Below, piece after piece: positions 15,506 through 36,454 of a stretch of 64,000 nt of DNA. Every line of letters begins with the position of its first letter. Position 1 is the first letter of the stretch. The notes under the pieces are model-generated. The model saw only the letters and a list, made by a program, of their open reading frames with translations, was not told where the DNA came from and did no database searches. The DNA lies in IMG/VR virus record IMGVR_UViG_3300024507_000285. The stretch is one strand, 5' to 3'. The position numbers were made by a program, and so were the translations under genes. The DNA comes from a virus. Taxonomy: Duplodnaviria; Caudoviricetes.

Positions 15506-17056
15506 TTATTCAACTTTAAGATTATCTAATGCTTCGTCTTCTCTATCATCAGTCCAAGAAGTTTCATCTTCTGATTCTTCATAGAACAATGTATCTGCAA
15601 TGTTAGTAACACCGCCACGTAGTCGAGCACCTTCTAAGTTCTGTAAGAAACCAAGTCGTTCAGCTTCTGCAATCATAGTAAATGCTTCATCTTTAGTTTT
15701 AAGAGCAAACAATTCTTCAACAAACTGATTAAAGTACAAAATATTACGAGGTACCCATTCCGAACGTTCATCGCTCTTATCGTTGTCTTTTACTTTACGC
15801 CAGTGTCTCCAATCTGGTTTGTAACTAGCGTATTCAATATCTGCAAGATTGTTTGCACGTTGAACAGCACGAATATGACATTCAACATTATGACCCATCA
15901 TTAGAGCATAAGCAAAACTATCCCAACTAGTTTTACCTTCCTTGCCAATCTTGTTTAACATTCCTGGAGCATAGTGGCAGATATCCGCGACCGTAAGTCT
16001 CCTACCAAAATCGGACTCGAAAGGAAAAGGTATATCGTGCCGTCCGGCAAGACCCTTATTGTCCGGGGCTTTATCCATGATAACACTGAATCGCTTATTG
16101 GTATGTTGGGCGTTAGTATATACCAATCCGTGAGCTGTTGCGATGAAAGGTGAAGCGCAGTCAAAGGAAATTGTGAAGTTTTCATTTACGTGTTTTCTAA
16201 TTTGACGTTGAATGCTTGTTAAGTAACAAGCCCAATCCAGCTGTGCGGTACCCAAGAAGTGCATCCAATCCTTGCCTTCTAGCATACCATCAAAACGCAT
16301 AGTGATTAGTCTGCGTAGTGTAATAGGCATTTTGCACATATTAGCACCACCCATAGCCCAACCTTCTGCGGCTTTGTCTCCATACTTGTTTGTATCGGAA
16401 TATTCTTTTACACCCTGGTACCACGCTTCTGCGTTTTCCCAGTTGCTACCTTGTAAAACATTTAATAGCTTAGTGCCGCCTTCTTTGGCACCTAAACGAT
16501 TTTGAATAAAGTATTCGTTATTAAAACGAGTCTTTTCTAAACAATCTTCAAACGATTTTAATCCTGTCTTTGGGCTGTGAATGTGATCACAAGCCCATGT
16601 CGGAACGTCTAGCATCATTGACCAATCAGCAGTTACGTCTAACCAAGTTAAAATCTTTTCGCGAGTTTTATTTGCTTCAGTACCTTCAAAGTTTTGCCAG
16701 TCAAACTTAATAACACCTTTACCGATCTGATAACCGCCTGAATCTCCTAAGATCATTGTCTTTGAACGATCACGCTGTTGAATCATAGATTCTTGCGTCA
16801 TAGACTTAGTAATGTCTAATTGAGCATGACCCGCTGAATACAAGGCAAATTTATAATAAAAATATCCTTGTTCGGGATTTAAAAAATTCATACCTTCAAT
16901 ACCGCGATCAAAGTCTTTAGGAATGCGGTCATCTGGAATAAATTTTTCTAAACGTTGTTTTGCAACGTATGTAGAATAGAAAGAACTAATAGCTGGTAAG
17001 TATACCGCATAGTCCTTTTGTAGTGGTGTTAAATCAACTGGTGGTTGTTTCTTCAT
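15506..17056 (-). CDS. dpdA: DpdA-type 7-deazaguanine DNA transglycosylase (TGT fold)
   Basis: GDSGGYQ, MMLDVP, VLQG, GWAMGG, HFLG, SFDCASP map in order onto TGT motifs; no bacterial-TGT CxCxxC. Confidence 0.82.
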   Translation of the reverse strand: MKKQPPVDLTPLQKDYAVYLPAISSFYSTYVAKQRLEKFIPDDRIPKDFDRGIEGMNFLNPEQGYFYYKFALYSAGHAQLDITKSMTQESMIQQRDRSKTMILGDSGGYQIGKGVIKFDWQNFEGTEANKTREKILTWLDVTADWSMMLDVPTWACDHIHSPKTGLKSFEDCLEKTRFNNEYFIQNRLGAKEGGTKLLNVLQGSNWENAEAWYQGVKEYSDTNKYGDKAAEGWAMGGANMCKMPITLRRLITMRFDGMLEGKDWMHFLGTAQLDWACYLTSIQRQIRKHVNENFTISFDCASPFIATAHGLVYTNAQHTNKRFSVIMDKAPDNKGLAGRHDIPFPFESDFGRRLTVADICHYAPGMLNKIGKEGKTSWDSFAYALMMGHNVECHIRAVQRANNLADIEYASYKPDWRHWRKVKDNDKSDERSEWVPRNILYFNQFVEELFALKTKDEAFTMIAEAERLGFLQNLEGARLRGGVTNIADTLFYEESEDETSWTDDREDEALDNLKVE

Positions 17057-21586: not shown

Positions 21587-22384
21587 TTACTTTTGTGCTT
21601 CGGATAACACATCATACATTTCAAATACACCGCCCATTCTTTCATATACTAGCCCGGCATATAGATCTGCTTTCATTCCTTCACCTAGTTTAGATTTAGC
21701 AACACGCTCAGCCCAGGCAAATAATTCTTTGTCTTTTGGATCAATTTGTTGTTGACCGCCGCTTTCTTGTACTAGTTTTACCATGTCTTTGAAAGATAGT
21801 TTTGTTTCAACTGATTCTGCAACTACTTTCTTAGAAGTTTTTACAGATTCGTTTTTCTTACCAAAGTATTTTGCTTGTTTAGCACTCATACCTTTCTTGC
21901 CATCTTTCTTGTCGCCGCCTTTCTTTTTATCTTTAGCAGCTTTCTTCATTGGTTCTTTTTTGTCACCGTCACCGTCGATGTCTGCAAAATCTGGCTTACC
22001 CTTTGCAGCTTCAACCATCTTACTAAATTTAGACTTGAACTCAGGATCAATAGACTCGTCTTTCTTTTTCTTATCTTCTTTTTCAGCTTGTTTTCCACTA
22101 TAGCGATCACCCGCTGTATGTTTCAAACCAGTTTTAGTTTTTTCTGCTGTACCGCCACTAGCTGTTTTTTTCTTGTCGCCTACTTTAGCATCGGCATCAA
22201 AAACTTCATCCATCTTTTCATCAGCTTTTTTCTTAGCTTCTGCAATATATGATGAAGTACCTGCTAGCACACGTAATTGTGCATCTTCGTTAAGCTGAAC
22301 AGCTTTTGGTAATTCTGGAGCTTTTGGTAGATCAACTTGATCGTTTAAGCTATGAATTTTAGTAAGTAATGATTTGAAGTCCAT
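21587..22384 (-). CDS. Lys/Glu-rich putative prohead core / internal head protein
   Basis: Highly charged; many xxE|A/S/D sites (LNE, IAE, MVE, KNE, VAE, VQE, LSE); DIDGDGD. Confidence 0.55.
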   Translation of the reverse strand: MDFKSLLTKIHSLNDQVDLPKAPELPKAVQLNEDAQLRVLAGTSSYIAEAKKKADEKMDEVFDADAKVGDKKKTASGGTAEKTKTGLKHTAGDRYSGKQAEKEDKKKKDESIDPEFKSKFSKMVEAAKGKPDFADIDGDGDKKEPMKKAAKDKKKGGDKKDGKKGMSAKQAKYFGKKNESVKTSKKVVAESVETKLSFKDMVKLVQESGGQQQIDPKDKELFAWAERVAKSKLGEGMKADLYAGLVYERMGGVFEMYDVLSEAQK

Positions 22385-22422
22385 GTTTGAGTCCTTGTAT
22401 CCTGTATAAAGATCCTATAATA

Positions 22423-22430
22423 TATTTATC
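22423..22430 (-). promoter_or_regulatory. Late-promoter-like GATAAATA
   Basis: TAAATA core upstream of 22384. Confidence 0.5.
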
Positions 22431-22683
22431 TTTTTATGGCAGAGCCGCCACCGAAGATATTAGTTTTCATATCTAGGGCATTTTTAGCTGTACCGTCCTT
22501 ATTTTTTGCTTGTTTTACTTTAGGAACTGCTGGTGCTTTTGTACCAGATTTGCCTGGGCTACCTGTGTAGCTTTTATTTCCACGATCTTTTCCTATAGCA
22601 ATATGAGGGCTAACAACCGTGCCGATATTAGCCGATGATGTTGCTCCTGCTGTAGCTGATTCTAAAATATCACGTATTTTCAT
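22426..22683 (-). CDS. Small putative internal head protein
   Basis: N-terminus MKIRDILE|S; late promoter 7 nt upstream. Confidence 0.6.
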   Translation of the reverse strand: MKIRDILESATAGATSSANIGTVVSPHIAIGKDRGNKSYTGSPGKSGTKAPAVPKVKQAKNKDGTAKNALDMKTNIFGGGSAIKR

Positions 22684-22689
22684 AATATA

Positions 22690-22890
22690 TTATTTATTCT
22701 TTCCGCTTTTCATATTTGCACACCAGTGATACATTTTAGATTTCTCACCCGATGCATTTTTTGCACGTTTGCGTAGATCAGTAACTGAACCAGAACAACT
22801 AGCCCCTGAACGTTTTACTCTTCCGGGGCGGCTTTTTCCTTTAACTTTTCCGTCAGCAAAGTTTTCTATAACAAACTCTTTAGCTCTCAT
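22690..22890 (-). CDS. Small basic putative internal head protein
   Basis: N-terminus MRAKEFVIE resembles T4 capsid-targeting sequence MKTYQEFIAE. Confidence 0.6.
   Translation of the reverse strand: MRAKEFVIENFADGKVKGKSRPGRVKRSGASCSGSVTDLRKRAKNASGEKSKMYHWCANMKSGKNK
22691..22698 (-). promoter_or_regulatory. Late-promoter-like AATAAATA
   Basis: 7 nt before ATG at 22683. Confidence 0.45.
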
Positions 22891-24056
22891 CTCATTGCTA
22901 CCTGGAAAGCCTGATGCTTTTCTTTTCTAGAGTCTAAATGTTTAAGCCCGGGATTGATAGTTTTAGTAACCGCTTTAGTATCTTTAAAACTATCAATTTT
23001 TGGTGCTACTCTATTTTTCCAATACCAAACTGCTACTTTAGCAGCAATTTCTGGTTTTTCTACAAGTTCGGGTTTTTGCTCTAACGGCAATCCTAATGCT
23101 TGGCCTGCTTTCTTATAATTGTCTCGACCTGTCAGCTGTATGTATCCGCGACCTTTATATTTTGCTCCGTCTCCAACATTTTTATTACCCAATGCTTTTG
23201 CTTTTTTAGGAGCATATTTAGGATCATATTTTCGAAAGTCTAATGATCCGCCTATTTCTTTCATGTGTTTAAAATCTAAAGTTTCGTGAGCGCATTGTGC
23301 TAAAAACGCTGTAAGCTCGTGACCTACTATACCTGCTTTTTCAGCAGCCTTTTTTAAGTAGACTTCGTGGGGATTACCGGTTACGCTTTTTGCAATATCT
23401 TTTTTAGATACCTGTTGAATAACATCCGGTTTAGAATGTTTAGCATTAGCATCACTAGGAGCACCGAATGCCATTGCAGTTCCTAGTGCCCCGGCTGCTG
23501 CCCAGTCCTTCCATCCCTCGTCAACTTCTCCCTTAGCAGCAGTTTTTAATGCAGAAAAGACTTTAGATAAACTATCTTCGTCTGCTTGATACTTAATAGC
23601 AATACCGCCCGCTTGTTGCCAAGCACGAATGTTTACACCGTAATCGTCAATAAGAATATTAGGAGTACCGTCAGCATTTTTTGCATATTTGTATTTTTCG
23701 TGTTCGAATATAATTTTGTCAGCAGGAACATGAATATGTTTTTTCAGCCATTCACGTTTACCTCTAATGCTTCCTTCTTTATCAAAGTTTAATGGGCTGC
23801 TTAAAATATTATAACCACCTGCATAATCAACTACTATGCTTAAAAGTTTATTAGCAGTAGAAAATGCCGGAAGGTCACGAAATAATTCATAGGCATTAGA
23901 GTCTTTAAAAAATGTTTCCCATTGATCTTTTGTCATTTTATTGTAGTGCTCTACATCATGTAAACCTCCTACATGATTAAAAAGATCAGCAAGGACTCCG
24001 TCCATATCAACATAGACTTTCATTCCTTTGGGTAAACTAAACTCTTCTGCTCTCAT
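22887..24056 (-). CDS. Fusion: HAD 5'(3')-deoxyribonucleotidase (NT5C) + GH19 lysozyme/chitinase-like domain
   Basis: VYVDMDGVLAD, LSSP, ILIDD; then AQCAHET, YKGRGYIQLTGRDNY, AVWYW. Confidence 0.85.
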   Translation of the reverse strand: MRAEEFSLPKGMKVYVDMDGVLADLFNHVGGLHDVEHYNKMTKDQWETFFKDSNAYELFRDLPAFSTANKLLSIVVDYAGGYNILSSPLNFDKEGSIRGKREWLKKHIHVPADKIIFEHEKYKYAKNADGTPNILIDDYGVNIRAWQQAGGIAIKYQADEDSLSKVFSALKTAAKGEVDEGWKDWAAAGALGTAMAFGAPSDANAKHSKPDVIQQVSKKDIAKSVTGNPHEVYLKKAAEKAGIVGHELTAFLAQCAHETLDFKHMKEIGGSLDFRKYDPKYAPKKAKALGNKNVGDGAKYKGRGYIQLTGRDNYKKAGQALGLPLEQKPELVEKPEIAAKVAVWYWKNRVAPKIDSFKDTKAVTKTINPGLKHLDSRKEKHQAFQVAMR

Positions 24057-24127
24057 ACTGGACTATATGGATTTAGAGGACGATCCCATTCGCCTTCTTG
24101 TGGTGGATAAACAGGATACTCGTTCAT
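24053..24127 (-). CDS. 24-aa micro-ORF
   Basis: [24 protein letters not shown], exactly fills the gap with ATGA overlaps at both ends. Confidence 0.55.
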
Positions 24128-24447
24128 ACTGCAAAACTACTTCCACAACCGCAGGTTGTTACTGCATTAGGATTTTTGATAGTAAAACTTGATCCCATTA
24201 ATTCTTCTTTATAATCTATCTCTGCACCGTGTAGATATTGCATACTCATTGCGTCAACTAATACTTTCCATGCACCGCAATCAAATTCAAAGTCATCTTC
24301 GTTTTGTTCGTCGTCAAAGGTAAAGCCGTAACTAAATCCACTACATCCGCCACCTTGTACAAAGGTACGAAGTTTTAAATTAGGGTTTCCCTCTTCAGAA
24401 AGCAAATCTTGAATTTTTATTTTTGCTGATGGTGATATTGTAATCAT
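24124..24447 (-). CDS. erpA: A-type Fe-S cluster insertion protein (ErpA/IscA)
   Basis: [34 protein letters not shown]. Confidence 0.92.
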
Positions 24448-24448
24448 T

Positions 24449-24652
24449 TTATTTTCCTACAGGTTTTTCTCCGGTTAGATAAGGAAGACTGAACCATAAT
24501 TGAAACCATTCCGGAGTACCTGGTTTAATATTATGTTGTTTCATAAGTTCGCCTTTTTCGTTTCCAGTAATACTTATGTTGCTGCCGTCGTAAGGTTGAT
24601 AACCTTTAAATTCGGTAATACCTGCAAGACGTTTTAGTTCAGATAAATCCAT
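24449..24652 (-). CDS. Small putative internal head protein (start MDLSEL)
   Basis: [14 protein letters not shown]|F; TAATG coupling. Confidence 0.6.
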
Positions 24653-25278
24653 TATGCTGTGGCTGGTTCGCCTGTACGAGAAACTTCCCATTTCTTGCCA
24701 GTCTGTTCAGTTTTCTTACGGCACATGTCTTGCAATCTACGAAGCTGAGCCATTTCTCTGTGATCGTCTGCGTATGTTCCTTGACCAGGAAACACTTTCC
24801 ATTTTTTACCGTTGATATAGATAGCAAAGTTATTTGGTGGTTCGGTGTTGCCCTCGTCCCAATCATCTTCTCTATTTCTACGTCCAAATCCGCTTACGCT
24901 ACTATCGTAATCTCTTTGATAAGCATCACGTCCAAAACCTGATTCTTTCATAGGATCCTTTCCTGCCTGTACTTTTTTATACCATGAAATTAATTCAGCA
25001 TCACTAGCAAGTTCAAGATAGTTTATTTCCCAGTCCATCTTTTTAGCTAAGAATTGAATAATTTGTTGTCTTTTAGATCTATCTAATAAACCTTCTGTTA
25101 CTTCTGCTGGTTTTTTATGTTTTTCATATCCTTGTTTTTGTGCCTTCTTCATATCTTTATGAGCACCGGCACCTGAGATAACACTTTGTGCAGCATGAGC
25201 TACAGGGTTTCTAGGTTTGACATTATACACTTTTGCTCTTCGGCTTTTCTTATGTTCTAATATATCAGATATTTTCAT
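24652..25278 (-). CDS. Modular putative internal head protein
   Basis: MKISDILE|H, VTE|G, MKE|S, WDE|G junctions. Confidence 0.6.
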   Translation of the reverse strand: MKISDILEHKKSRRAKVYNVKPRNPVAHAAQSVISGAGAHKDMKKAQKQGYEKHKKPAEVTEGLLDRSKRQQIIQFLAKKMDWEINYLELASDAELISWYKKVQAGKDPMKESGFGRDAYQRDYDSSVSGFGRRNREDDWDEGNTEPPNNFAIYINGKKWKVFPGQGTYADDHREMAQLRRLQDMCRKKTEQTGKKWEVSRTGEPATA

Positions 25279-28200
25279 GATGATCTCTTTTGTTTAGGAC
25301 CCTTACGAGTTTTCCATTTTTTATCAGTGGAACACCAATAGCGTCCATATCCTTCTTTTACTTCTTTCTTTTTAGGATAACCGTGTTTTATTTCTAGTTG
25401 ATAACCCTGTAATCCTTGTTTATCTAAAACCTTACTAATAAATTCTTCGGCTTCTTTCGCAGAAGAAAATTTATCACCTAAATTATATTTCCTCATTTCG
25501 CCATCGATCATTACATAGGCAATAGTAATAGGTTTGACTGGTTCTTCTGCCGCCTGTGCCGGACTTGCTAATAAATTAGCAGCAGCTAAAGCTGCGCCTG
25601 CCGTTTTACTTTTCCAACCTTCTTCAACGCTATCAATCATTGGATCAATACCGCGACTTCGGATTCCACCTTTTCTTCTTACTTTAGCAAGTTCTTCTAA
25701 GGCATGACGAATTTGTTCTACATTCATTTTAAGTTCGTCAAATTGTTTGGCCATGTTTTGCCATTCGTATGGACTAGCATTGTCTACTCTGCTAGCAAGA
25801 TCTTTAATTTGTCCAGCTGCTCTCATCATTCTATATTTTAACTTCGCTGGGTTGGCTTTGTCATGGCTATGAATCATAGGATTCATTGGTTCGGAAGGAT
25901 CCATTTCAATCGGTGCTTCAGATATGCTTTCTTGAATACCCATGCCCTTGCGTGTGAAATCCATTAATTTCATAATCCAATCTTTCCCTAATTTTTGAAC
26001 ATCAAAACCTTGAGACCATAATGCAAATTGCTGTTCTGGAGTAGCATTAGGATCTTTTAAAATGTTACGTAATTTAGTAAAACTCATTCCAGTTCCGCCA
26101 GTTTCGGCAGCTCTTGGTGTAACTTCTACATCAAATTTAACATGTTCAAATCCTGGATATTTAGGATTCTTCATCCTTTTAGATAAATGCTCCATCCATT
26201 TTTTAAATCCTTCATATCGATCTTCGCCAACCATAACAATGATATGATCGTATGGAGGAGGATTACTTGATGTTACTAATTCTTTTTCAATTTTTTTCAT
26301 AACTAATCCACCTTCTTGGATCAGCTGGAACATGGCCTTCTTTTCTGGATATAATTTTTGCCATGTTTGTAATTTAACAGAAGCTGGAATAGGATCGTCT
26401 GGTCCCACGGCACTACTAATATAAACATAAGGATCAGCATTTAACTGAGACGCTTTGTTTAAAACAAAATCTACAAGTTGTTGATGTCCAATGTGCCCAA
26501 CAAAACTTCCTGCGGTAACGACAGCAGTTTTGCCCGATCTTCCATCGCCTGTTGCTCCAGGAGGTCTTGCAGATTTAATTGCTGCGTTTTTTGCAGAAAT
26601 AATATCTTTTTGTTCTTGACTAGTAATTTTAACAGGACCATTCTTTGTGTTAAGAATAATGCCTTCATAATCTTTGCCTAACTTATCCTTTCCTATAATA
26701 TCTGGATGTTGGATGATAAATTTTGCTAGATATTCTTTGACAGGCTGCAATGCTTCGGTAGCTTCTTTTTTAAGATCTCTTTTACCGCTATTAACTAACG
26801 ATCGTAATGTTTCAAGATTTTCAATGGGAGGCAATGCCCCAGTTACATCTAAACTGCCGTTAGTAGTTAACGAGTTGTCAATGAACATTGTTGTTCCAAT
26901 GCGACCAATTTTTCTCAATGCAGAGATGTATTTGTCGCTATTTGGATGTTGTTCGCCAGTTGAGCTTTTTTCAGCAAACAATGGCACAAGTGCTAGAGTA
27001 ACACCTTCGGGCAACTTGTCATAATGTATGCCAACAAATTTTAATTTACCATCTTCTGTTTCAGTAGCAAATGGTAGATATAAAACTTCACAATGAATTT
27101 TTACATCATTGAGAGCGGTATTACCTAATTTTTGATCAACGTTAGCAATGACATGCATCATCTCGTCGTATAGATCATCAAATAACTTAGCCCTAGCTTT
27201 TACATCTGGAGCGGCTTGTCTTTCTTCAGCATGTTTGCTGAATGTACCAGGTTCAAACTTAGGACCACTACGACTAGTTTCCATATATGGTTTGCCAGAT
27301 TTATCTTTACCAAACCTAGCACCAAACCCGTCTACTTTAACGGTCATTGGAACATTGTGTAATTCAAATTTTCCTGTTGCTGAATTTTTTAATTCGTCTA
27401 ATAAATTTAAAAAATCAGAATCCTTCATTTTTTCTAAATGAACAATTCCTTTTCTTTTACTTTGTACTACTTCGGCTTCGTTAATACTTTCGGATACTTT
27501 GTAACTTGCTTTATAATCTTGACGCATTTGTTCAAGATTTTTATGAGGTGTAACGTTTAAAGTTTTTAATGCATAGTTAAGTGCTGTATTTTTTTCTAAG
27601 ATATCTCTTTCAGGATCGCCTTTATATAATCCTTGTGCGCCAGGAGCATATAGCTTATCAATAAATGCATCAATGACTTTTTCCTTTTCATCCTGAGGAA
27701 CAACAAGATTCATAATTTCTAATAATCCTGTAAAACTCCATGTCTTAGGAAGAAGTTTTTGTATTTCTGTTTCTTTAACTCTTTTACCAAATATGTTTTG
27801 GAAAATTTTTCCAATATTCTTTTCGTAACCACTTGCTGGCAACGCCCTCATAACAGGAAGACCGTCAATTTCTAAAGGCTGTCCGGCATCGTCTAATACT
27901 GGTTCATATTTAGGACGAAGGCCTCCGCCTTCTTTGCTACTAACAGCAAAAGAAAACATATTGTCTGTTGTTGGAACATCTTGTTCAACTCTAGCTTTAC
28001 CTCGGCCAACCATTTTTCTTAATAAAAAATCTTGGCTTGTTAATCGTGTAAATGATTGAATTAGATACTTGTGAAATACACCTTTGATACCTTGGCTTAA
28101 ATCTTCCCAGCTACTGCTATGACTAAATCCTGCCCAATCAGTGGGTTCGTCTTTTTCATAATCTACAAATTCAAGATCAATCTGTACCTTAATAGGAGGA

Positions 28201-28676
28201 TCAGTTAACTCCCACATTGTACTATATTGTTCGTTGCCTTTACTAAATCCAATTAATTTTCCATTGCCAACAACTTTACCTGTTGAGGATTGTAAAAATT
28301 GAACAAGTTCTCCTGCATATTCTTTATTAATTTGTGTATCTATATCGCCAACTTTAGGTTTAATACGTTCAAACTCGTCGTCGGGTAAGTCAGTATTAAA
28401 AAAATGTAAACTAGATCCGCTTAAGAATTTTTTACTTGCTAAAACTTTTTTATTCCAAAGTTCGTGACCAACTGATGCAGTAAAACTAGAATTAATTCCG
28501 TTTAATAATTTGTCTAATATTGGAACAATATAAGAACGCTTGTGAACTTTAAGATCAATTTGCTGAGCTTGATGGTCACCGGTATCTCCTTGCCAGCCAG
28601 GGCTTTGAGTCGAAAGGTTTCCACCTTCTATAAGAGGTAAATTATTTCTCTTGTAGAATAATTCTAAAAGTTTCAT
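25275..28676 (-). CDS. Multidomain protein: Pol-beta-like NTase + ATP-dependent ligase-like + HIGH-motif NTase + small C-terminal modules
   Basis: LSGSS/GDIDT/VQIDLEF; TVKVDG/HCEVL/YEGII/PVKIT; GHIGH/VGEDR/MSFTKLR. Confidence 0.75.
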   Translation of the reverse strand: MKLLELFYKRNNLPLIEGGNLSTQSPGWQGDTGDHQAQQIDLKVHKRSYIVPILDKLLNGINSSFTASVGHELWNKKVLASKKFLSGSSLHFFNTDLPDDEFERIKPKVGDIDTQINKEYAGELVQFLQSSTGKVVGNGKLIGFSKGNEQYSTMWELTDPPIKVQIDLEFVDYEKDEPTDWAGFSHSSSWEDLSQGIKGVFHKYLIQSFTRLTSQDFLLRKMVGRGKARVEQDVPTTDNMFSFAVSSKEGGGLRPKYEPVLDDAGQPLEIDGLPVMRALPASGYEKNIGKIFQNIFGKRVKETEIQKLLPKTWSFTGLLEIMNLVVPQDEKEKVIDAFIDKLYAPGAQGLYKGDPERDILEKNTALNYALKTLNVTPHKNLEQMRQDYKASYKVSESINEAEVVQSKRKGIVHLEKMKDSDFLNLLDELKNSATGKFELHNVPMTVKVDGFGARFGKDKSGKPYMETSRSGPKFEPGTFSKHAEERQAAPDVKARAKLFDDLYDEMMHVIANVDQKLGNTALNDVKIHCEVLYLPFATETEDGKLKFVGIHYDKLPEGVTLALVPLFAEKSSTGEQHPNSDKYISALRKIGRIGTTMFIDNSLTTNGSLDVTGALPPIENLETLRSLVNSGKRDLKKEATEALQPVKEYLAKFIIQHPDIIGKDKLGKDYEGIILNTKNGPVKITSQEQKDIISAKNAAIKSARPPGATGDGRSGKTAVVTAGSFVGHIGHQQLVDFVLNKASQLNADPYVYISSAVGPDDPIPASVKLQTWQKLYPEKKAMFQLIQEGGLVMKKIEKELVTSSNPPPYDHIIVMVGEDRYEGFKKWMEHLSKRMKNPKYPGFEHVKFDVEVTPRAAETGGTGMSFTKLRNILKDPNATPEQQFALWSQGFDVQKLGKDWIMKLMDFTRKGMGIQESISEAPIEMDPSEPMNPMIHSHDKANPAKLKYRMMRAAGQIKDLASRVDNASPYEWQNMAKQFDELKMNVEQIRHALEELAKVRRKGGIRSRGIDPMIDSVEEGWKSKTAGAALAAANLLASPAQAAEEPVKPITIAYVMIDGEMRKYNLGDKFSSAKEAEEFISKVLDKQGLQGYQLEIKHGYPKKKEVKEGYGRYWCSTDKKWKTRKGPKQKRSS

Positions 28677-29023
28677 TAGTCTTCCTGTTTATAGTCGCCG
28701 TTCTCGATATGCTTTTCTTGTTCAGTAGCAATCATTTTTGCTAGTTCAACAATTTTGCTTTCAGGAAACTTTTCATTGGCATCTTCAATATCAAACATTT
28801 CACAATAATTTTCTAAACAACTTCTTAAAGGTTTAATGTAAATTGTGAAAGCCTTTGGATGTCCTGCATGTTTTTCGTGGCGCTTTACCGCAGGAAAGAA
28901 ATATTTTGTTAATAATTCTGTATTATTATCAATATAAAATTTTAAATCGTCAATCCAATCAATGTCAGCTTGCTCGTCATCTTTTGGAGCTCCTATAGCC
29001 GACCACATTTCTTTTAATAACAT
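28676..29023 (-). CDS. Hypothetical helical protein
   Basis: 115 aa, MLLKEM N-terminus, TAATG coupling. Confidence 0.65.
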   Translation of the reverse strand: MLLKEMWSAIGAPKDDEQADIDWIDDLKFYIDNNTELLTKYFFPAVKRHEKHAGHPKAFTIYIKPLRSCLENYCEMFDIEDANEKFPESKIVELAKMIATEQEKHIENGDYKQED

Positions 29024-29424
29024 TATTTCTGCTCCGGTGGATTATATTCTACATGCTCTGCGGCAGAATTTAAATGATCATTGGCAAGGGTAATATAACT
29101 ACTAACCCATCCTGGTAATTCATCACCTTCTCGGATACTATTAAAAAGAATCTTGGCGTTTTTTGCAATTTGAACTAATTCTGCTTTAGCCATGCTTGCT
29201 TCGTGATCTGTGGATTCTCTTATCCCTTTAGATCTAGCTTCTTTTTCTAAGTCTAATTTACGTTGCTGTACTGCTTTTGCAAGATCAGGCTCTTTCATAA
29301 CAACAGGATCAGTTTCAAGATCGTGTAGGGCCTTCTTTTTAGCTTCGTAATCACCCTTAGGGTCTGCTGAATTTAATTCTGTTTCAAATAAAGAAACTTC
29401 AAGTTTAGTGATAATATCTTTCAT
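29023..29424 (-). CDS. Putative internal head protein (start MKDIITKLE)
   Basis: LFE|T and IRE|S junctions; late promoter upstream. Confidence 0.6.
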   Translation of the reverse strand: MKDIITKLEVSLFETELNSADPKGDYEAKKKALHDLETDPVVMKEPDLAKAVQQRKLDLEKEARSKGIRESTDHEASMAKAELVQIAKNAKILFNSIREGDELPGWVSSYITLANDHLNSAAEHVEYNPPEQK

Positions 29425-29449
29425 AGTATGGTTCCGTAAGGACATACTA

Positions 29450-29457
29450 TATTTATC
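29450..29457 (-). promoter_or_regulatory. Late-promoter-like GATAAATA heading the internal-protein block
   Basis: TAAATA core in intergenic gap. Confidence 0.55.
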
Positions 29458-29841: not shown

Positions 29842-30528
29842 TTATTTAGCTAAAATTTGATAGTCGTAAACCCTACCCACAACTTCACCATTTCGCAATT
29901 GCATCATGAATAGAGTTTTTTCGTCCTCTACAAGTACGTATCGACGGTCCCAATTATAATCGGTCTTTATAAACCAACTTTTAACTGCGGTTGACATTCG
30001 TATCTTTTCCCCTTGAGTTTCAATCCAAGAAACAAAACTTTCTTTTGCTTCTTTATTTCCTTTTAACTTATGGGGAAGAAGATATACTTTGTAGTTATAT
30101 CTATTATGAGGTAATTTTTTAGCAAAAATCGAATTTGAATTTGTTTGTTCTTGTTCTTGCCCAGGAAATGGTTCAAATACATGTCTTACATAATCTTTAA
30201 ATTCTAAAGCAAGATTTTTACAAAATGTAGCATCGTTAGTGTATATGTCGATATATCTACTTTCAATTCTTTTAGTAAATTCAACATTTTTATTTTTTTC
30301 TAAAAATGTAACTAGTTCTAAGATTTGATCTTTGTTACTAAATGCTTGTTTTCTGCTGTCAAAATAATAATGTCGATCTTGTTCTTCTGGGTTTAAACAG
30401 AATTCTCTAATCTCATCATATGTTTTTGTGCGTAACAAAGATACCCCCTTGATCAAGACGGTAACTTTGTATAACCACTTATTGTAAAACTTTTGACCTG
30501 TATACTTTACATCATACGGTTTCTTCAT
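29842..30528 (-). CDS. Hypothetical protein with internal duplication
   Basis: FYNKWLYKV...RYIDIY and PHNRYNYKV...RYVLVEDE halves. Confidence 0.6.
   Translation of the reverse strand: MKKPYDVKYTGQKFYNKWLYKVTVLIKGVSLLRTKTYDEIREFCLNPEEQDRHYYFDSRKQAFSNKDQILELVTFLEKNKNVEFTKRIESRYIDIYTNDATFCKNLALEFKDYVRHVFEPFPGQEQEQTNSNSIFAKKLPHNRYNYKVYLLPHKLKGNKEAKESFVSWIETQGEKIRMSTAVKSWFIKTDYNWDRRYVLVEDEKTLFMMQLRNGEVVGRVYDYQILAK
29843..29850 (-). promoter_or_regulatory. Late-promoter-like GCTAAATA
   Basis: 4 nt before ATG at 29838. Confidence 0.45.
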
Positions 30529-32824
30529 TGGATTCCTCCAAGTTTAACCCTCGCTTCAATGCCTTTTTCTGTTCTTTGGTTAAAATAGGACTAATTTCAA
30601 ATTTTAGATCGTCATTCTCAATGCTAACATCAACTCGTCCGCCGTTTTGTAATTCTCCAAATAGGACTTTACGGCTCAAAGGAGATTTGAGTTTATTATC
30701 AATTAAACGAGCCAACGGTCTTGCGCCCATCTTTTTATCGTAACCTCTTTCAGCTAACCATTTAACTGATTCGGAATCAACAACAATCTCAATGCCTTTA
30801 TCTTTAAGTTGATCGTTAAGTTCTTTAACAAACTTTTTAACAATTTGACCAACGGTAACCATTGAAAGATTTGAAAACTTAATAATAGCATCTAAACGAT
30901 TACGGAACTCCGGAGCAAAGAATTTCTTAACTGCCTTGTCGTCCTCGTCGTCCTTGCTTAAGTCACCAAAACCTATGGTATTTTTTTCGTTGTCTGCTGC
31001 CCCTAAATTACTGGTCATAATTAAAATAGTGTTGCGACCGTCTGCTTGTTTTCCATTACTTCCAGTTACAAATCCGTTATCCATAAATTGTAACAAGATG
31101 TTTGACACATCGGGATGTGCTTTTTCAATTTCATCTAAAAGCAATACAGCATTTGGGTGTTCTTGTAGTTTGGTAATCAACTGACCTGCGTTATCTTCGT
31201 ATCCAACATAACCAGGAGGTGCACCAATTAATCGAGCAACGCTATGTTTTTCTTGATATTCACTCATATCAAAACGAATTAATTGCATACCCATTTTATC
31301 TGCTAACGCTCTTGCAGTTTCTGTTTTACCTGTACCAGTTGGACCTAAAAATAGAAAACTGCCAATGGGTTTATTAGGATTTTTCATACCTGCTTGAGAA
31401 ACAAAAATCTTATCAAGAAGATTATCAACTGCTGTATCTTGTCCATAAACAGATGCCTTCATGGAACCTTCTAGGTCAGATAAGTTCTTACTTTCTTTTT
31501 GTGCTACCATTTCTAGCGGCATATTAACCATTTTACTAAGTTCGTATGTAACCTGTTCAATATCTACCAGTTGTTCAATGCCTTCCATGCCGTCTTCGTC
31601 TTTTACTTTATAACGAGCACAAGCACAATCGATAATGTCAATTGCTTTGTCTGGTAATTTTTTATCAGACATATACTTCATAGAAAGTTTAACTGATTGC
31701 TCAATTGCACCGTCAGTAATTTTAACGTTGTGATGTTTTTCGTAGTATTTCTTAATACCTTTAATAATTTTAACTGCAAGTTCTGGCGTTGGCTCGTCAA
31801 CCGTAACACGTTGGAATCGACGCATTAGAGCACGATCTTTTTCAAAATGTTTACGATAATCTTCCCACGTAGTTGATGCTACAAGTTTAATAACACCTTT
31901 AGTAAGGATTGGCTTCAACATATTGGCCATATCATTTGAACTTTGATTAGCAGCACCGGCACCTTGCATCATGTGTGCTTCGTCAATGAATAAAATAATC
32001 TTGCCTTTCTTTTCTAAAGCACCTAACACAGCTTTTACACGTTCTTCAAAATCTCCACGATACTTACTACCAGCTAGCAATGCTGAAATATCTAAACTAT
32101 AGACCTGATGGTCTTGAATAAACTTAGGTACTTTCTTTTCAAAGATCTTGCGAGCAAGACCTTCTACAATAGCAGTCTTACCGACTCCGGGTTCACCTAC
32201 CAGTAAAACATTACATTTGTTTCTGCGAGCAAGAACAAGTTGTACCTTTTCAAGCTCGTCGTCTCTACCAATAACAGGATCAATTTTACGTTGTTTTGCT
32301 TGTAGGCTTAGGTTAGTACAAAAAGTATTAATAATTCGTTCCATCTGACTAGGGTTTGTAACTGCGGTTTCTTGGCTTGATTCTTCTTCATTATTAACCA
32401 TTTCTTGGAAATAATTAATAAATTTTTCTTTTGTTAAGCCGCCTTTGTTTAAAAAATAAAATGCAAAACTATTTTTTTCATTTAAGATGCTAACAATAAC
32501 ATCTGCAACTTCAATACGTTGACGCCCACTAAACAAAACTTGAGTAAAACATCTATTGAGCACACGTTCTACAGCATGAGTTTTTCTTGGTTTTTCGCAT
32601 TCTGGATTTTTAATATCGCTAAGATTATTTTTAATATAATGATCTAGATTTGTTTTAATAAAATTAGCATCAGCACCGAAGTCGGTGATCATCTTAAATG
32701 AATCAGCATCATCCATTATACCAAGAAGCAAATGTTCAATGGTAATATATTCGTGATCAAGGCTTTTTGCCATATTCATCGAATTTTCAAAAATTTGTTG
32801 TAGACTTTGACTTGGTTCAATCAT
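30512..32824 (-). CDS. clpA: ATP-dependent Clp protease ATP-binding subunit ClpA
   Basis: Clp N-domain (EHLLL), GEPGVGKT, FIDEAH, GPTGTGKT, LLDEIEKAH, IGF loop. Confidence 0.93.
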   Translation of the reverse strand: MIEPSQSLQQIFENSMNMAKSLDHEYITIEHLLLGIMDDADSFKMITDFGADANFIKTNLDHYIKNNLSDIKNPECEKPRKTHAVERVLNRCFTQVLFSGRQRIEVADVIVSILNEKNSFAFYFLNKGGLTKEKFINYFQEMVNNEEESSQETAVTNPSQMERIINTFCTNLSLQAKQRKIDPVIGRDDELEKVQLVLARRNKCNVLLVGEPGVGKTAIVEGLARKIFEKKVPKFIQDHQVYSLDISALLAGSKYRGDFEERVKAVLGALEKKGKIILFIDEAHMMQGAGAANQSSNDMANMLKPILTKGVIKLVASTTWEDYRKHFEKDRALMRRFQRVTVDEPTPELAVKIIKGIKKYYEKHHNVKITDGAIEQSVKLSMKYMSDKKLPDKAIDIIDCACARYKVKDEDGMEGIEQLVDIEQVTYELSKMVNMPLEMVAQKESKNLSDLEGSMKASVYGQDTAVDNLLDKIFVSQAGMKNPNKPIGSFLFLGPTGTGKTETARALADKMGMQLIRFDMSEYQEKHSVARLIGAPPGYVGYEDNAGQLITKLQEHPNAVLLLDEIEKAHPDVSNILLQFMDNGFVTGSNGKQADGRNTILIMTSNLGAADNEKNTIGFGDLSKDDEDDKAVKKFFAPEFRNRLDAIIKFSNLSMVTVGQIVKKFVKELNDQLKDKGIEIVVDSESVKWLAERGYDKKMGARPLARLIDNKLKSPLSRKVLFGELQNGGRVDVSIENDDLKFEISPILTKEQKKALKRGLNLEESNEETV

Positions 32825-33669
32825 TATTCGACTCCGTCTCTTAGTTGTTGTACTTTATGTATTTGATTAGCTGATAGGTTACGTGGAATATTGACATTAA
32901 TTTTAATTAATAACGGCCCACGTATTTTTGAACGCATATTTGGCAAACCTTCTCCTTTGCAACTTAGTATTGTATTTGATTGTGTTCCTGCTGGAACACT
33001 GACACTAATATTTTTTCCTGAGATAGTAGGAACATCTATTGTTGTTCCTAATATAGCATCCCAGACAGAAATATTATGTTCAAAGATTAAAGAATCGCCT
33101 TCTCTAATAAATGTTGGATGTTTTCGAATATAAAGATTAACAATCAAATCTCCTGCCGGGACATCTCGTAGGGTTGTGTCGCCCATACCTTCATATCGAA
33201 TTTGTTGGCCGTGATCTACGCCTGCAGGAATTGAAATATTAATTAATTTTCTTTGCCCGCCGGGTATAGTAATTTCAGCATTTAAATCTTTGCCTTTTAA
33301 AACTTCTTCTAAGGAAAGTTCTACGTTAATGTTAACAGATCTATTTCTTCGCATTGGCCTACGTCCAAATCCAAACTGCGAAAAAATATCGTCCATGCCC
33401 GGCATGCCGCCACCGAAGTGAAATTCAAATGGGCCTTGGTTGTAAAATCCGCCGCCCATTCCTGGTTGTGCATTAGGATCTCCGCCCATATCAATAATCC
33501 GTTTTTTATCAGGATCGCTTAATGCTTCGTAGGCAGTAGATATTTCTTTAAATTTATTTTGGTCACCTCCACGATCGGGATGATGCTTCATCGCAAGTTT
33601 GCGATAAGCCTTTTTAATCTCGTCGTCAGATGCACCTCTTTGTAAACCTAGTGTTGAGTAATAATCCAT
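32824..33669 (-). CDS. dnaJ: DnaJ/CbpA-like co-chaperone (no Zn finger; start MDYY)
   Basis: DYYSTLGL, HPD motif, G/F linker, C-terminal DnaJ domain. Confidence 0.88.
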   Translation of the reverse strand: MDYYSTLGLQRGASDDEIKKAYRKLAMKHHPDRGGDQNKFKEISTAYEALSDPDKKRIIDMGGDPNAQPGMGGGFYNQGPFEFHFGGGMPGMDDIFSQFGFGRRPMRRNRSVNINVELSLEEVLKGKDLNAEITIPGGQRKLINISIPAGVDHGQQIRYEGMGDTTLRDVPAGDLIVNLYIRKHPTFIREGDSLIFEHNISVWDAILGTTIDVPTISGKNISVSVPAGTQSNTILSCKGEGLPNMRSKIRGPLLIKINVNIPRNLSANQIHKVQQLRDGVE

Positions 33670-33675
33670 AATACT

Positions 33676-33704
33676 ATTATACAATAAAAAAAGGACCACG
33701 TCAA
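33676..33704 (-). promoter_or_regulatory. sigma70 promoter TTGACG-N17-TATAAT
   Basis: Hexamers at 33699-33704 and 33676-33681; ATG 6 nt downstream. Confidence 0.7.
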
Positions 33705-33958: not shown

Positions 33959-34480
33959 TTAAATTTCTGGTTGATCAGGTTGAACCGGCATTGGTTTACC
34001 TGTACTGCTCATCATCGGTGCAGCTGGTGCCCCAAATGTTGCTGGCTTAGATACGCCTCCAAAGCTGCTTCCGCTAAAGCTACTTGGGGAGCTTGGTGCT
34101 CCGAAACCTGGCGTAGTCGCTGCTGGGAAACTGCTTGGTGCTGCCGTAGCAGGGCCAAATGTTGAAGGGTTACTTGTTGCCATTGGTTGTGCGCCACCAT
34201 TGTTTGCTCCATTTAGTTTTTCTTGTGTGCGACCAAATGCCGCGATACCTAATACTGCACCCATTGCGATATGGAATAAACCAGCACCTTGTAAGGTTAA
34301 TGGATTCCATTGTGTAATAGGACTATGTGTTAGAGTTTGTAACAAACTCCATAAGATTGGAAATACAACCATGTCCATCATGCAGACAACCATATACATC
34401 CAACCCATCATTGGACGCCATTTAGCATTCATCCAATCTTCTTTTTTCTTTTCACTTTCGCTCTTTACTTCTTCAGTCAT
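33959..34480 (-). CDS. Holin, 3TM/GTA-holin-like, with low-complexity tail
   Basis: WRPMMGW, hydrophobic helices, LGIAAFGRTQEK; in lysis cassette. Confidence 0.65.
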   Translation of the reverse strand: MTEEVKSESEKKKEDWMNAKWRPMMGWMYMVVCMMDMVVFPILWSLLQTLTHSPITQWNPLTLQGAGLFHIAMGAVLGIAAFGRTQEKLNGANNGGAQPMATSNPSTFGPATAAPSSFPAATTPGFGAPSSPSSFSGSSFGGVSKPATFGAPAAPMMSSTGKPMPVQPDQPEI

Positions 34481-34499
34481 TGTCCGCTCCTAATTTATT

Positions 34500-35063
34500 T
34501 TAGAACCAAAGGAATAAACCATTTAGGCTCAATAATACTCCGGCGCCCGCTACTACAAAGCTGCCCCAGAACATTGCCATGCTAACTGCAAGAATACTTG
34601 CAGATAATACAACAATAGCTAATTGATACGCTGTTGAAGCATAACCAATCCATGGGCTAGACTTTTTAGCAATTTCACGCTCGTGTTCCATGGCCTTTGC
34701 TTTAACAGCAAGTTCTTTCTTGTCTTCATCCATGCGTTCTTTTTCAGCCATGAACGCTGCTTTAAGTTTTGGATCAGCGGTTGTCTTAGCGGCAATCTCG
34801 TAGCTAACTCCACGACCTGCTTTGGCTTGATATTGTGCCCATGTATTGTTAGCACCTAGTGTATTGTTTAATACCGTGCTAGATAATTTGCCACTATACC
34901 ATGCGTTAACCGCTAATAATAATGCAAATACAGAAATAACCATACCTGCTTTGTCTTTTAGTTTTGCTTCACGCTCGCTGCGTGATCCCACTGGAGGCTT
35001 TGGTGCGTCCGGATCTTTGGGTTGCTTGTTAACTAAATTTAACACTGAATCAATTAATGCCAT
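34500..35063 (-). CDS. DUF4337-like membrane protein
   Basis: TM, NNTWAQYQAK, coiled coil, two C-terminal TMs (YQLAIVVLSASIL). Confidence 0.6.
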   Translation of the reverse strand: MALIDSVLNLVNKQPKDPDAPKPPVGSRSEREAKLKDKAGMVISVFALLLAVNAWYSGKLSSTVLNNTLGANNTWAQYQAKAGRGVSYEIAAKTTADPKLKAAFMAEKERMDEDKKELAVKAKAMEHEREIAKKSSPWIGYASTAYQLAIVVLSASILAVSMAMFWGSFVVAGAGVLLSLNGLFLWF

Positions 35064-35087
35064 TCATCGCTCCTTTAAATACTAACT

Positions 35088-35354
35088 TTATTTAAGTGTT
35101 TCCCAAATTTTTTGTTGCCCTTTGTACCATGAAATCCAATTATCAACCTGTGCTTTGCAATCGTAATATTCCTTGTAGTTGTCTGCTACAACTTCAACAA
35201 TGGCGCTAAGTTTGTCATTTTTAGGATCTACGGTTTTTAGATCGGGACAAGCTTCTAATAATTCTTTAGGAACCTCGGGCCATTTAGGAATTACAGGAGC
35301 AGTTGAACATCCTGCTAATAAAGTTACTGCTAATAAAAGTGCTAATTTTTTCAT
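35088..35354 (-). CDS. o-spanin (Rz1-like) lipoprotein
   Basis: Lipobox LLAGC, Pro-rich segment, follows i-spanin. Confidence 0.7.
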   Translation of the reverse strand: MKKLALLLAVTLLAGCSTAPVIPKWPEVPKELLEACPDLKTVDPKNDKLSAIVEVVADNYKEYYDCKAQVDNWISWYKGQQKIWETLK

Positions 35355-35815
35355 TTTTTAGCCTCTGGATTAGTTGCAGCTTTATTAACTAACTCGTTTA
35401 CTCGAGGGTCTATTTTGCATTCTGCATTGATAATTTTTTCAACTTCTTGAATTTGTGTTTTAACCGTATTGTAGTATTCAACACGAACTTTTTGTTTCTT
35501 TTTCTTTTCTTCACTTAATTGTTTATTAAGGTCTGAACTAGCACGTTCTGCCTGTGCAACTTTATCTTCTGCTTCTTTTACCTTAGCTCTCCATTCTGCT
35601 TCAGTATCGTAGCCACCTTTAAAATAAACCCCAGCAACTAATAATACAACACTGACAATTTGTAAAAGTAAATGATACGGTGCTAGTGCAGGGAACCAAC
35701 GTACAATTCTATGTAATAAAAAGAAACTTAAAAATGTACCAATGGCACCTGCTAGTAATACTAGGTGTACAGCATAAATTAGTACAGCATCCGGTACCCA
35801 CGCTAGCATCCACAT
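35351..35815 (-). CDS. i-spanin (Rz-like)
   Basis: N-terminal TMs followed by coiled coil; between endolysin and lipoprotein. Confidence 0.65.
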   Translation of the reverse strand: MWMLAWVPDAVLIYAVHLVLLAGAIGTFLSFFLLHRIVRWFPALAPYHLLLQIVSVVLLVAGVYFKGGYDTEAEWRAKVKEAEDKVAQAERASSDLNKQLSEEKKKKQKVRVEYYNTVKTQIQEVEKIINAECKIDPRVNELVNKAATNPEAKK

Positions 35816-35818
35816 AAG

Positions 35819-36454
35819 TTATGCTCCAAAAACGTGTAATGCGTGATTATAATGTTTGATACGATCTTCTAAACCAATAGTACCACCGTTGATACGCTTG
35901 GTTAATGTTAGGATGTCACCTTTGTCTGCCCATTGATTTAGGTTGTTTGTTTCCCAGAACCAGCAAGCTGATTGCACAGCACCTTCGAATGTCTGTAGGT
36001 ATTCTGCCGCTTCCTCTACAGGAATATCTAAACTGGCAGCAAACCAGGTATAATTTTCTTTACCTGTTAATTGAATTAGTCCGCGACCGCAGTAACGATA
36101 ACCGTCGCCAGAGTCTTCTGGACCGTTACCCATACGATTTGCATAAATGCGATTTGCTATAGCTTCTTGCTTGTTAGGTAAACTAGCATAGTGATTAGCT
36201 GTTGCATCGTCTGTAAAATACTTAGGAAAAATCTTACGTAGACTAGGTGCTTTATAATTTAAGTTTTCTTTTAATACACGAAATCCACCTGATTCGTGTG
36301 CGCATTGTGCCATAAAAGCTGCTACACGTTGGGGGGTGTTAATTTCATAATCTGGTAAAATTTCATTTAATGCTTCGTACCAATGATCAATATATGGATT
36401 ACCTTTGATGATATCTGCTACTTGATCTCTAGTAAAGTTAAATGTGAAGCTCAT
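35819..36454 (-). CDS. GH19 endolysin
   Basis: AQCAHESGGF, GRGLIQLTGKENY, TKRINGG. Confidence 0.92.
   Translation of the reverse strand: MSFTFNFTRDQVADIIKGNPYIDHWYEALNEILPDYEINTPQRVAAFMAQCAHESGGFRVLKENLNYKAPSLRKIFPKYFTDDATANHYASLPNKQEAIANRIYANRMGNGPEDSGDGYRYCGRGLIQLTGKENYTWFAASLDIPVEEAAEYLQTFEGAVQSACWFWETNNLNQWADKGDILTLTKRINGGTIGLEDRIKHYNHALHVFGA

Follow-up and report, generated by a model that had tools for sequence, protein, structure and literature searches.

The window, i.e. the whole analysed stretch of 64,000 nucleotides, belongs to an uncultured giant tailed phage from a lake (Duplodnaviria; Caudoviricetes; IMG/VR record IMGVR_UViG_3300024507_000285). On its minus strand a run of abutting genes includes two precursor genes, each of which encodes, directly behind an E|G junction, an internal signal-peptide-like sequence here called a cassette. 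The relevant features are as follows.

22887..24056, minus strand: 389-residue two-domain precursor (short leader, NT5C/HAD nucleotidase, cassette 1, GH19 muramidase-like domain)
22890..23441, minus strand: passenger 1, a linker and the GH19 domain with glutamates E258 and E267 at the catalytic positions
23442..23516, minus strand: cassette 1, signal-peptide-like, 25 residues, from G-W-K to A-N-A
23517..23525, minus strand: site 1, V-D-E, predicted prohead-protease site with presumed cleavage after Glu180
25275..28676, minus strand: 1133-residue modular precursor
25278..25352, minus strand: basic C-terminal peptide of 25 residues following a V-K-E site
25353..25550, minus strand: passenger 2, a 66-residue beta-beta-alpha-beta domain followed by the further site V-K-E
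25551..25619, minus strand: cassette 2, signal-peptide-like, 23 residues, from G-W-K to A-Q-A
25620..25628, minus strand: site 2, V-E-E, predicted prohead-protease site with presumed cleavage after Glu1019
29450..29456, minus strand: ATAAATA, T4-late-promoter-like, heading the gene run which contains both precursors

In the 389-residue protein cassette 1 is located between the NT5C domain (residues 14-156) and the GH19 domain (residues 246-354), and hence precedes the latter as a preliminary description of this DNA had claimed. Passenger 1 matches the GH19 family in Pfam (E=8.8e-13, 49 bits vs a cut-off of 25.5) and aligns with solved phage endolysins (E=2.6e-21); E258 and E267 are invariant among its homologues and aligned with a solved endolysin. 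Judged by the profile match and both catalytic-position glutamates, it is a GH19 muramidase-like domain. Glu180 is invariant in 60 homologues, in which G181, W182, K183 and A205 are nearly so. Among the matches listed all GH19 homologues carry the cassette (120 of 120), and no cultured-phage match to the GH19 part covers it; the GH19 version of the cassette is found behind many different upstream partners. In the predicted structure model, residues 177-209 form an unstructured stretch between two folded domains. The pLDDT of this stretch is below 50, which makes a structural role of the cassette unlikely, low confidence being in itself weak evidence.

The 1133-residue precursor is composed of three large N-terminal enzyme-like regions, one of them cytidyltransferase-like, followed by small modules, cassette 2, a small passenger and a basic tail. 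It contains ten [ILVM]-x-E-[AGSD] sites, several of which are situated at module borders. Passenger 2, whose fold is predicted with a pLDDT of 84, has no Pfam match, and its Atlas feature scores are all below 0.8. Its best fold matches (Z 6.5 and 6.1) are PurS-like; this small fold is common and implies no function for this domain. Its combination with cassette 2 was not found in cultured phages.

Both peptides are encoded where the preliminary description had placed them, in two different proteins on the minus strand (23442-23525 and 25551-25628 including the respective site). Starting at residues 181 and 1020, neither forms the N-terminus of its primary product, and each could act as a signal peptide only once a cut has freed its front end. 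The two had been called near-identical in design; a common design is indeed evident, but the sequences are only 35% identical over 31 residues. The basic n-region ascribed to each is present in copy 2 (net side-chain charge +2) but not in copy 1, where Lys and Asp add up to zero. As to the proposed Pro...A-x-A c-region, A-x-A is found in both copies, whereas Pro is a minority feature across the family. The uncharged run spans 17-19 residues in the window copies. A looser regular expression of the design yielded 0.012 matches per window when the residues were shuffled 1000 times; of the two copies it matched copy 2 only, since the c-region of copy 1 contains an Asp. Searching related phages for modules of E-G-W-K plus signal, as the preliminary description had suggested, revealed that the cassette profile matches 430 protein clusters (E<=0.001), which together with the shuffles excludes a chance origin. 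Likewise, an assembly artefact is excluded because the 389-residue protein is present on 37 contigs and both open reading frames are called with identical length in two other assemblies. Hence, both peptides are real and represent two copies of one portable cassette.

Across the family this cassette follows the pattern [VLI]-x-E, then G-W-K, an Ala/Gly-rich stretch and a terminal A-x-A, at which sequence conservation stops. The passengers downstream form 42 clusters and are unrelated (about 40 different ones), and the cassette is conserved more strongly than the passengers it precedes. With a length of 23-25 residues, a Lys near its start, 17-20 uncharged residues, a helix breaker and A-x-A it resembles signals cleaved by signal peptidase I (SPase I) after passage through Sec, from which it differs in being internal, in having no initiator Met and in the reuse of one sequence on many passengers. 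Its n-region, too, is often neutral, the charge amounting to 0, +1 and +2 in 54, 71 and 38 of 163 non-redundant cassettes, so that a third are neutral. Finally, its core is less hydrophobic: the best 10-residue Kyte-Doolittle mean is 1.42 and 1.87 in the window copies (family median 1.76), compared with a median of 2.81 across 14 bacterial N-terminal signals, a small reference set picked by shape in which one or two members are as low as the cassettes. Because of this weak core the Sec route is uncertain.

A phage muramidase preceded by such a Gly/Ala-rich, weakly hydrophobic segment is reminiscent of SAR endolysins, whose export is independent of a holin (PMC3765740). The cassette could accordingly be a membrane-seeking helix, i.e. 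a SAR-like anchor or an ejection pilot, which is exposed by the cut, enters the inner membrane at ejection and tethers or guides its passenger without host translocase or signal peptidase. The lack of A-x-A in some copies would fit this reading, as would gp47 of Salmonella phage SPN3US, an inferred ejection protein cut by the prohead protease at A-L-E-111, the mature fragment of which keeps a predicted N-terminal membrane helix (PMC5694885). That protein, however, is a single one from a phiKZ-like phage with a predicted transmembrane helix rather than a reusable module, and neither a signal-peptidase site nor host export was proposed for it. Moreover, A-polar-A occurs at positions 19-29, with a peak at 23-25, in 127 of the 163 cassettes (78%), compared with 36+/-5.5 (maximum 52) in 500 shuffles. 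SAR domains, in contrast, are N-terminal and uncleaved and possess neither c-region nor A-x-A (PMC3765740), while the window cassettes are internal and end in a conserved A-x-A. This fixed distance, together with the interchange with canonical twin-arginine signals described below, renders a mere membrane helix quite unlikely.

In relatives of the window phage, internal twin-arginine (Tat) signals (TIGR01409, PF10518) take the place of the cassette. All ten twin-arginine motifs found by queries without Glu are internal and lie close behind a Glu site (1-2 residues in seven cases, 5-7 in three), the background for such sites being 7% per position. In further Tat cases in which P3 was not forced, this residue is L or I in 29 of 29. 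The TIGR01409 cut-off of 16.7 bits is passed by relative L271 with 23.5 bits, and G006 scores 25.3 bits. The S/T-R-R-x-F-L-K motif is absent from both window copies, neither of which matches TIGR01409, and Tat signals normally are N-terminal from the start; the window cassette can nevertheless be aligned, column for column, to the hydrophobic core in the relatives' internal Tat signals. Four passenger families (29-66% identity), among them LysM and that of passenger 2, are found behind both G-W-K and Tat signals. This interchange on the same passengers goes beyond what the preliminary description had considered. The known use of the RR-x-F-L-K motif is Tat binding. In addition, searches for a Cys-ending, lipoprotein-like form of the cassette gave no match with an exact DNA pattern but three more at the protein level; four diverged sequences keep this form.

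The domains which can be named are sorted by compartment. Behind cassettes we find GH19, LysM, TonB/TolA-C, SLT and an IalB/VasI-like domain, while NT5C, HAD, cytidylyltransferase, pterin dehydratase and sigma region 4 are located in front of them. Every nameable envelope-acting domain (GH19, LysM, TonB/TolA-C, SLT) is downstream of a cassette and the cytoplasmic enzymes are not, so that the downstream domains do not prove cytoplasmic, an outcome which would have spoken against the preliminary description. Since most passengers have no known family, this argument is based on few domains. One TonB-C match among the segments initially counted as upstream is in fact located behind a Tat cassette. 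Exported TonB/TolA C-domains might block uptake, an idea for which our literature search found no paper.

Alternatively, the cassette may be a phage-internal tag for protease docking, core binding or ejection order, its likeness to signal peptides being incidental. The conservation of G-W-K, which exceeds that of ordinary signal n-regions, would be accounted for in this way. Yet a tag of this kind leaves A-x-A, the Tat and Cys-ending twins and the sorting of envelope domains unexplained, and most Glu sites in cassette-bearing proteins have no cassette; we consider it highly improbable.

It was further conceivable that the cassettes are fossil signals, once-separate secreted genes having been fused with their signals left over, or that the passengers are made from internal starts. 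Copy 2 does have an in-frame Met seven codons upstream, and short-leader Tat forms in relatives (e.g. L260 and L283) could be exported uncut and may be ancestral. In-frame start codons before the cassette are not enriched, however (30 of 118 vs 26.8% expected), which tells against internal starts. Copy 1 has no start codon among the 12 codons preceding it, the P3 Val codons are GTT or GTA in 41 of 53 cases rather than GTG, and the N-T-G contained in the Gly-Trp codons is out of frame. No cassette starting with Met was seen, no stand-alone passenger with an ordinary N-terminal signal was found among seven short homologues, and the shortest forms still keep a leader ending in a Glu site. Where short homologues start within the cassette, the gene calls appear to be truncated. 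Left-overs would not be reused on about 40 unrelated passengers and be better conserved than these, as the cassettes are, and a fossil origin seems very unlikely.

What would unmask the cassette is suggested by the sites in front of it. P3 is V, L, I, M or F in 140 of 163 cassettes (V60, L37, I29, M10); the invariance of Glu in the G-W-K set is partly built in, as the searches were seeded with Glu. Compared with the cleavage rule of T4 gp21, L/I-x-E, Glu at P1 fits in sites 1 and 2 and Val at P3 differs in both. Val being the commonest P3 residue of the family is a point against cleavage by such an enzyme. The related phages have genomes of 300-365 kb and a T4 gp21-type protease, PF03420 being over its cut-off in four of five long related records and in both complete ones; genes adjoining the protease are dense in the same Glu sites. 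As no protease gene lies within the 64-kb window, its presence is deduced from these relatives. Leaders of the type M-[KR]-x-x-E/D, for which a capsid-targeting role is putative, are frequent both in the gene cluster and among the matches. ATAAATA is present in nine copies in the window vs 32 expected, most of them just upstream of gene starts, and probably acts as a late promoter; a sigma-70 promoter scan remained at chance level. The host is probably a betaproteobacterium and therefore has a periplasm.

Taken together, we favour the view, with a probability of somewhat below 0.6, that injected cargo carries an export signal which is unmasked by head maturation. Late in infection the modular precursors would be made, with their internal signal passed over by the export machinery, and be loaded into the prohead as T4 internal proteins are. 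There, the gp21-type protease would cut behind the conserved [VLI]-x-E and create the G-W-K N-terminus. The pieces may then be ejected with the DNA into the cytoplasm of the next host, as judged from T4, where those bearing a cassette would be exported post-translationally, most likely by SecA/SecYEG. By cleaving at A-x-A, signal peptidase I would detach the cassette, so that the GH19 domain and the small beta domain end up periplasmic, the unsignalled pieces (NT5C, nucleotidyltransferases) remaining cytoplasmic. Cleavage, capsid loading, injection and export of the cassette-bearing pieces are thus steps which we infer. The weakest of them is the likely purpose, an early change of the envelope such as local wall remodelling or the blocking of competing phages; if active in the periplasm from the onset of infection, a muramidase could lyse the host prematurely. 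Of the original proposal that head maturation exposes an export signal, both halves are favoured by the comparative evidence, but the identity of the route with Sec is less certain.

All sequence evidence of cleavage and export would be accounted for equally well if the same protease unmasked real signals in the phage-producing cell. Precursor left unpackaged would then be cleaved at a late stage and exported within that cell, for instance to assist lysis in step with head assembly or to keep out late-coming phages. Late transcription is likely, and a periplasmic muramidase is less dangerous late than early. T4 gp21, however, acts inside the prohead on core-associated proteins, the leaders resemble capsid-targeting tags, the phage already encodes a separate holin and GH19 endolysin (33959-36454), and the same could be achieved more simply by giving a late gene an ordinary N-terminal signal. 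Export in the producing cell is hence unlikely.

Injected phage proteins are normally thought to be cytoplasmic or to form a DNA channel. The cargo proteins IPI-III and Alt of T4 share with the window proteins short N-terminal leaders ending in hydrophobic-x-Glu and, with the relatives of the window phage, a prohead protease of the S77 family; in both cases the cargo is presumed to undergo cleavage inside the head and to be ejected. T4 internal-protein cargo loses a propeptide of 7-19 residues and acts in the cytoplasm (PMC9026906), whereas the window cargo is a chain of modules in which the predicted cut would lay bare an export signal as a further address. Polyvalent proteins of phages and conjugative elements resemble the precursors in uniting unrelated enzyme domains, including lysozymes, in one chain, which is injected and probably processed; the processing is ascribed to zincin-like metallopeptidases, and neither signal peptides nor the periplasm are mentioned (PMC5512222). 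Full-text searches, with most subscription papers outside their coverage, returned no description of the mechanism favoured here.

We consider it slightly more likely than not that these jumbo phages run a delayed export route: envelope effectors would be stored in the capsid as polyproteins with hidden Sec, Tat or lipoprotein addresses, which are exposed by the head protease alone and enable the translocases of the next host to sort the pieces within minutes, before phage gene expression. If this is true, head maturation is a switch for a host export signal by which ready-made proteins reach the periplasm as soon as infection starts, and the cassette is a rare instance of a signal peptide which proteolysis generates in one cell and a different cell reads. 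As an annotation rule it would turn hundreds of unknown small phage domains into envelope effectors and thereby into candidates for superinfection exclusion or the blocking of host defences. The cassette itself may provide a simple part for periplasmic protein delivery via the existing T4 packaging system.

Both copies of the cassette, i.e. a [VLI]-x-E site followed by G-W-K, an Ala/Gly-rich stretch and an A-x-A end, are located where the preliminary description had placed them and, as nearly all genes of the window, are encoded on the minus strand:

23442-23516, minus strand: copy 1, 25 residues behind V-D-E, ending with A-N-A, between the NT5C nucleotidase and the GH19 domain of a 389-residue protein
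25551-25619, minus strand: copy 2, 23 residues behind V-E-E at residue 1019 of a 1133-residue protein, ending with A-Q-A

While the A-x-A c-region claimed for each is present in both, the basic n-region is found in copy 2 only. Since the copies share only 35% identity, they represent a common design and not, as had been proposed, near-identical ones. In the predicted structure of the 389-residue protein, two folded domains are connected by the site and the cassette, which are unstructured. Both GH19 glutamates are kept in the part following the cassette (passenger 1). The N-terminal 920 residues of the 1133-residue protein (25275-28676, minus strand) contain three enzyme-like regions which have PHROG matches (residues 15-384, 429-571 and 713-919; in the third case to a cytidyltransferase), and Glu-type sites lie near their borders. 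Copy 2 is followed by a 66-residue domain (passenger 2), a V-K-E site and a 25-residue basic tail; fold comparison of passenger 2, predicted to be a small beta-beta-alpha-beta domain, gave no informative match. Both reading frames are called at equal length in two other assemblies. The source phage is uncultured; its longest contig measures 223 kb, and the genome comprises 200 kb or more.

In related phages the cassette is present in all 120 listed homologues of the 389-residue protein, preceding GH19 or LysM-GH19, while the upstream part varies. Pattern scans of DNA, together with an iterated profile, yielded 250 copies at 232 loci; the profile matches 430 protein clusters (50% identity), and each long record contains one or two unambiguous copies. 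The downstream segments form 42 clusters, mostly of 60-130 residues and often ended by the next hydrophobic-x-Glu site. As the G-W-K searches were seeded with Glu (P1 of the predicted cut), the junction is fairly tested only by P3, two residues before it, by internal twin-arginine (Tat) signals and by the GH19 homologues. P3 is V, L, I, M or F in 140 of the 163 non-redundant copies. An A-polar-A end occurs at position 19-29 in 127 of these (peak 23-25) compared to 36 ± 5.5 upon shuffling, a heuristic test, and the columns downstream of it are free of conservation. Peptides removed by signal peptidase I are expected to show an A-x-A end followed by unconstrained residues, so that this is the pattern expected for such removal. 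Variants lacking the A-x-A end (P0128:635, P0131:181, P0135:517, P0043 and L163 of related phages) are possibly uncleaved membrane anchors. The commonest passenger group (P0139, P0159, P0171 and about 120 similar copies), to which no Pfam family could be assigned, displays a short C-terminal helical motif, S-K-E-Y-L-Q ... A-Q-E-L-L, which is sometimes doubled.

A twin-arginine motif search with a query devoid of any Glu gave 10 matches in 8,828 ORFs, all of them internal; seven are situated 1-2 residues and three 5-7 residues behind a hydrophobic-x-Glu site, the background rate of such sites being 7% per position. In a further Tat set, from a DNA scan with Glu fixed and P3 left free, P3 is Leu or Ile in 29 of 29 cases. 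One tested internal Tat signal passes the curated cut-off of TIGR01409. Four passenger families (the small beta domain of copy 2, LysM, an IalB/VasI-like domain and one without known family) are found behind both signal kinds at 29-66% identity. Both kinds align column by column across the Ala/Gly core and, therefore, one may derive from the other. A third form ends with Gly-Cys, and its passenger elsewhere sits behind an A-Q-A cassette:

L182:1129-1413, minus strand (also L366-L368): Gly-Cys-type variant ending with C-x6-C, then A-T-T, kept in four diverged sequences

This variant appears lipoprotein-like, its lipobox being non-canonical.

Following cassettes, Pfam names the domains GH19, LysM, TonB/TolA C-terminal, SLT and phage lysozyme, which are envelope-acting and not cytoplasmic; signal-like modules before domains of this kind, for which the preliminary description had proposed to search, are present in related phages. 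Upstream, NT5C, HAD phosphatase, cytidylyltransferase, pterin dehydratase and sigma region 4 are found. Passengers thus seem sorted by compartment, as judged from few domains, most passengers having no family. Beside this sorting and the interchange with Tat signals, a role of the cassette as a phage-internal tag is highly improbable. The TonB-C domain of P0249, considered as an exception, was rejected as such since a Tat cassette precedes it. TonB/TolA C-terminal domains follow buried Tat signals in L261:444-995 (minus strand), L277 and P0249:206-345. By obstructing TonB- or Tol-dependent uptake, a soluble periplasmic domain of this type could keep rival phages from entering; no paper supporting this was found.

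With respect to the predicted cut, T4 gp21 cleaves after L/I-x-E (PMC9026906), a rule from which Val at P3 deviates. Of five long relatives, with lengths of 210-364 kb, four encode a PF03420 protease, and the adjoining scaffold-like gene contains 10-15 hydrophobic-x-Glu sites per ~365 residues; replication and tail proteins of the window mostly have 0-0.8 per 100 residues. Neighbouring small genes, none of which carries an export cassette, show capsid-targeting-like leaders and several such sites, reaching a density of 2.6 per 100 residues:

21587-22683, minus strand: small gene with such a leader
24652-25278, minus strand: likewise
29023-29445, minus strand: likewise
36451-37194, minus strand: likewise

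ATAAATA, a candidate T4-type late promoter, occurs nine times in the window versus 32 expected, mostly directly before gene starts:

3462, 4214, 22423, 22691, 29450, 37720, 37913, 43860 and 46896: ATAAATA (motif scan)

The copy at 29450 (minus strand) heads the gene run containing both cassette proteins, which would fit late expression. In-frame start codons precede the cassette in 30 of 118 cases (26.8% expected), hence without enrichment, the Val codons at P3 are not GTG, and the leader ending in a Glu site is kept even in the shortest genes. The internal starts which the preliminary description had considered as a simpler origin are accordingly not reflected in the start codons; fossil signals or internal starts are very unlikely to account for the cassette.

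The best 10-residue hydropathy amounts to 1.42 and 1.87 in the window copies (family median 1.76) versus 2.81 for a reference of 14 shape-picked bacterial signals, and the core is weak for Sec. Arguably, a buried signal must be weak to evade SRP during synthesis, and an injected protein is limited to a post-translational export route. The weak Gly/Ala core of the cassette recurs in SAR endolysins, which lack its c-region (PMC3765740). Among experimental precedents SPN3US gp47 comes closest; its cut leaves a predicted membrane helix at the N-terminus (PMC5694885). That the cassette itself is a membrane anchor or an ejection pilot we consider unlikely.

The surrounding genes give further indications:

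24124-24447, minus strand: ErpA/IscA-type Fe-S carrier located among the cargo genes, identity to Burkholderiales proteins 60-69%
30512-33699, minus strand: phage-encoded ClpA-type ATPase and DnaJ, adjoining the cargo cluster
33959-36454, minus strand: separate lysis block, including a DUF4337 membrane protein
33959-34480, minus strand: holin-like gene (PF11351)
35351-35815, minus strand: possible spanin, by shape only
35819-36454, minus strand: second, stand-alone GH19 endolysin, weak Pfam match
6425-7288, minus strand: QueE-like (motif)
11532-12278, minus strand: FolE-like (motif)
13654-14064, minus strand: QueD-like (motif)
15506-17056, minus strand: TGT-like (motif), no Pfam match
47366-47956, minus strand: QueC-like (motif)

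As the ErpA-like protein is closest to Burkholderiales, the host probably possesses a periplasm, Sec and Tat. The ATPase and DnaJ could help to load cargo or hold it unfolded, and the last five genes look like a 7-deazaguanine DNA-modification set. Since a holin and an endolysin are encoded separately, passenger 1 does not serve as the main enzyme of lysis. A muramidase that reaches the periplasm as infection begins is hazardous, which speaks against its export in the newly infected cell; that cut and export take place in the phage-producing cell is nevertheless unlikely.

In the most likely mechanism (probability roughly 0.58), each dynamic step of which we infer, modular precursors would be made late in infection, loaded into the prohead and cut after [VLI]-x-E; the pieces would be ejected, those bearing a cassette exported post-translationally, and the cassette taken off at A-x-A. 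What the sequences themselves show is the layout and its conservation, the exchange with Tat signals, the sorting of those domains that can be named and the protease gene of relatives. In T4, targeting leaders of 10-19 residues are present on the internal proteins, whose ejection delivers them to the cytoplasm (PMC9026906); the cassette system would work likewise, with a second address added. Signal peptides are not mentioned in a polyvalent-protein survey or a jumbo-phage review, and, in agreement with the novelty initially supposed, the full-text literature searched, which covers few subscription papers, contained no account of phage head cargo with export signals unmasked by a protease. The cassette system is thus a real, widespread and apparently undescribed variant of a known phage cargo system.
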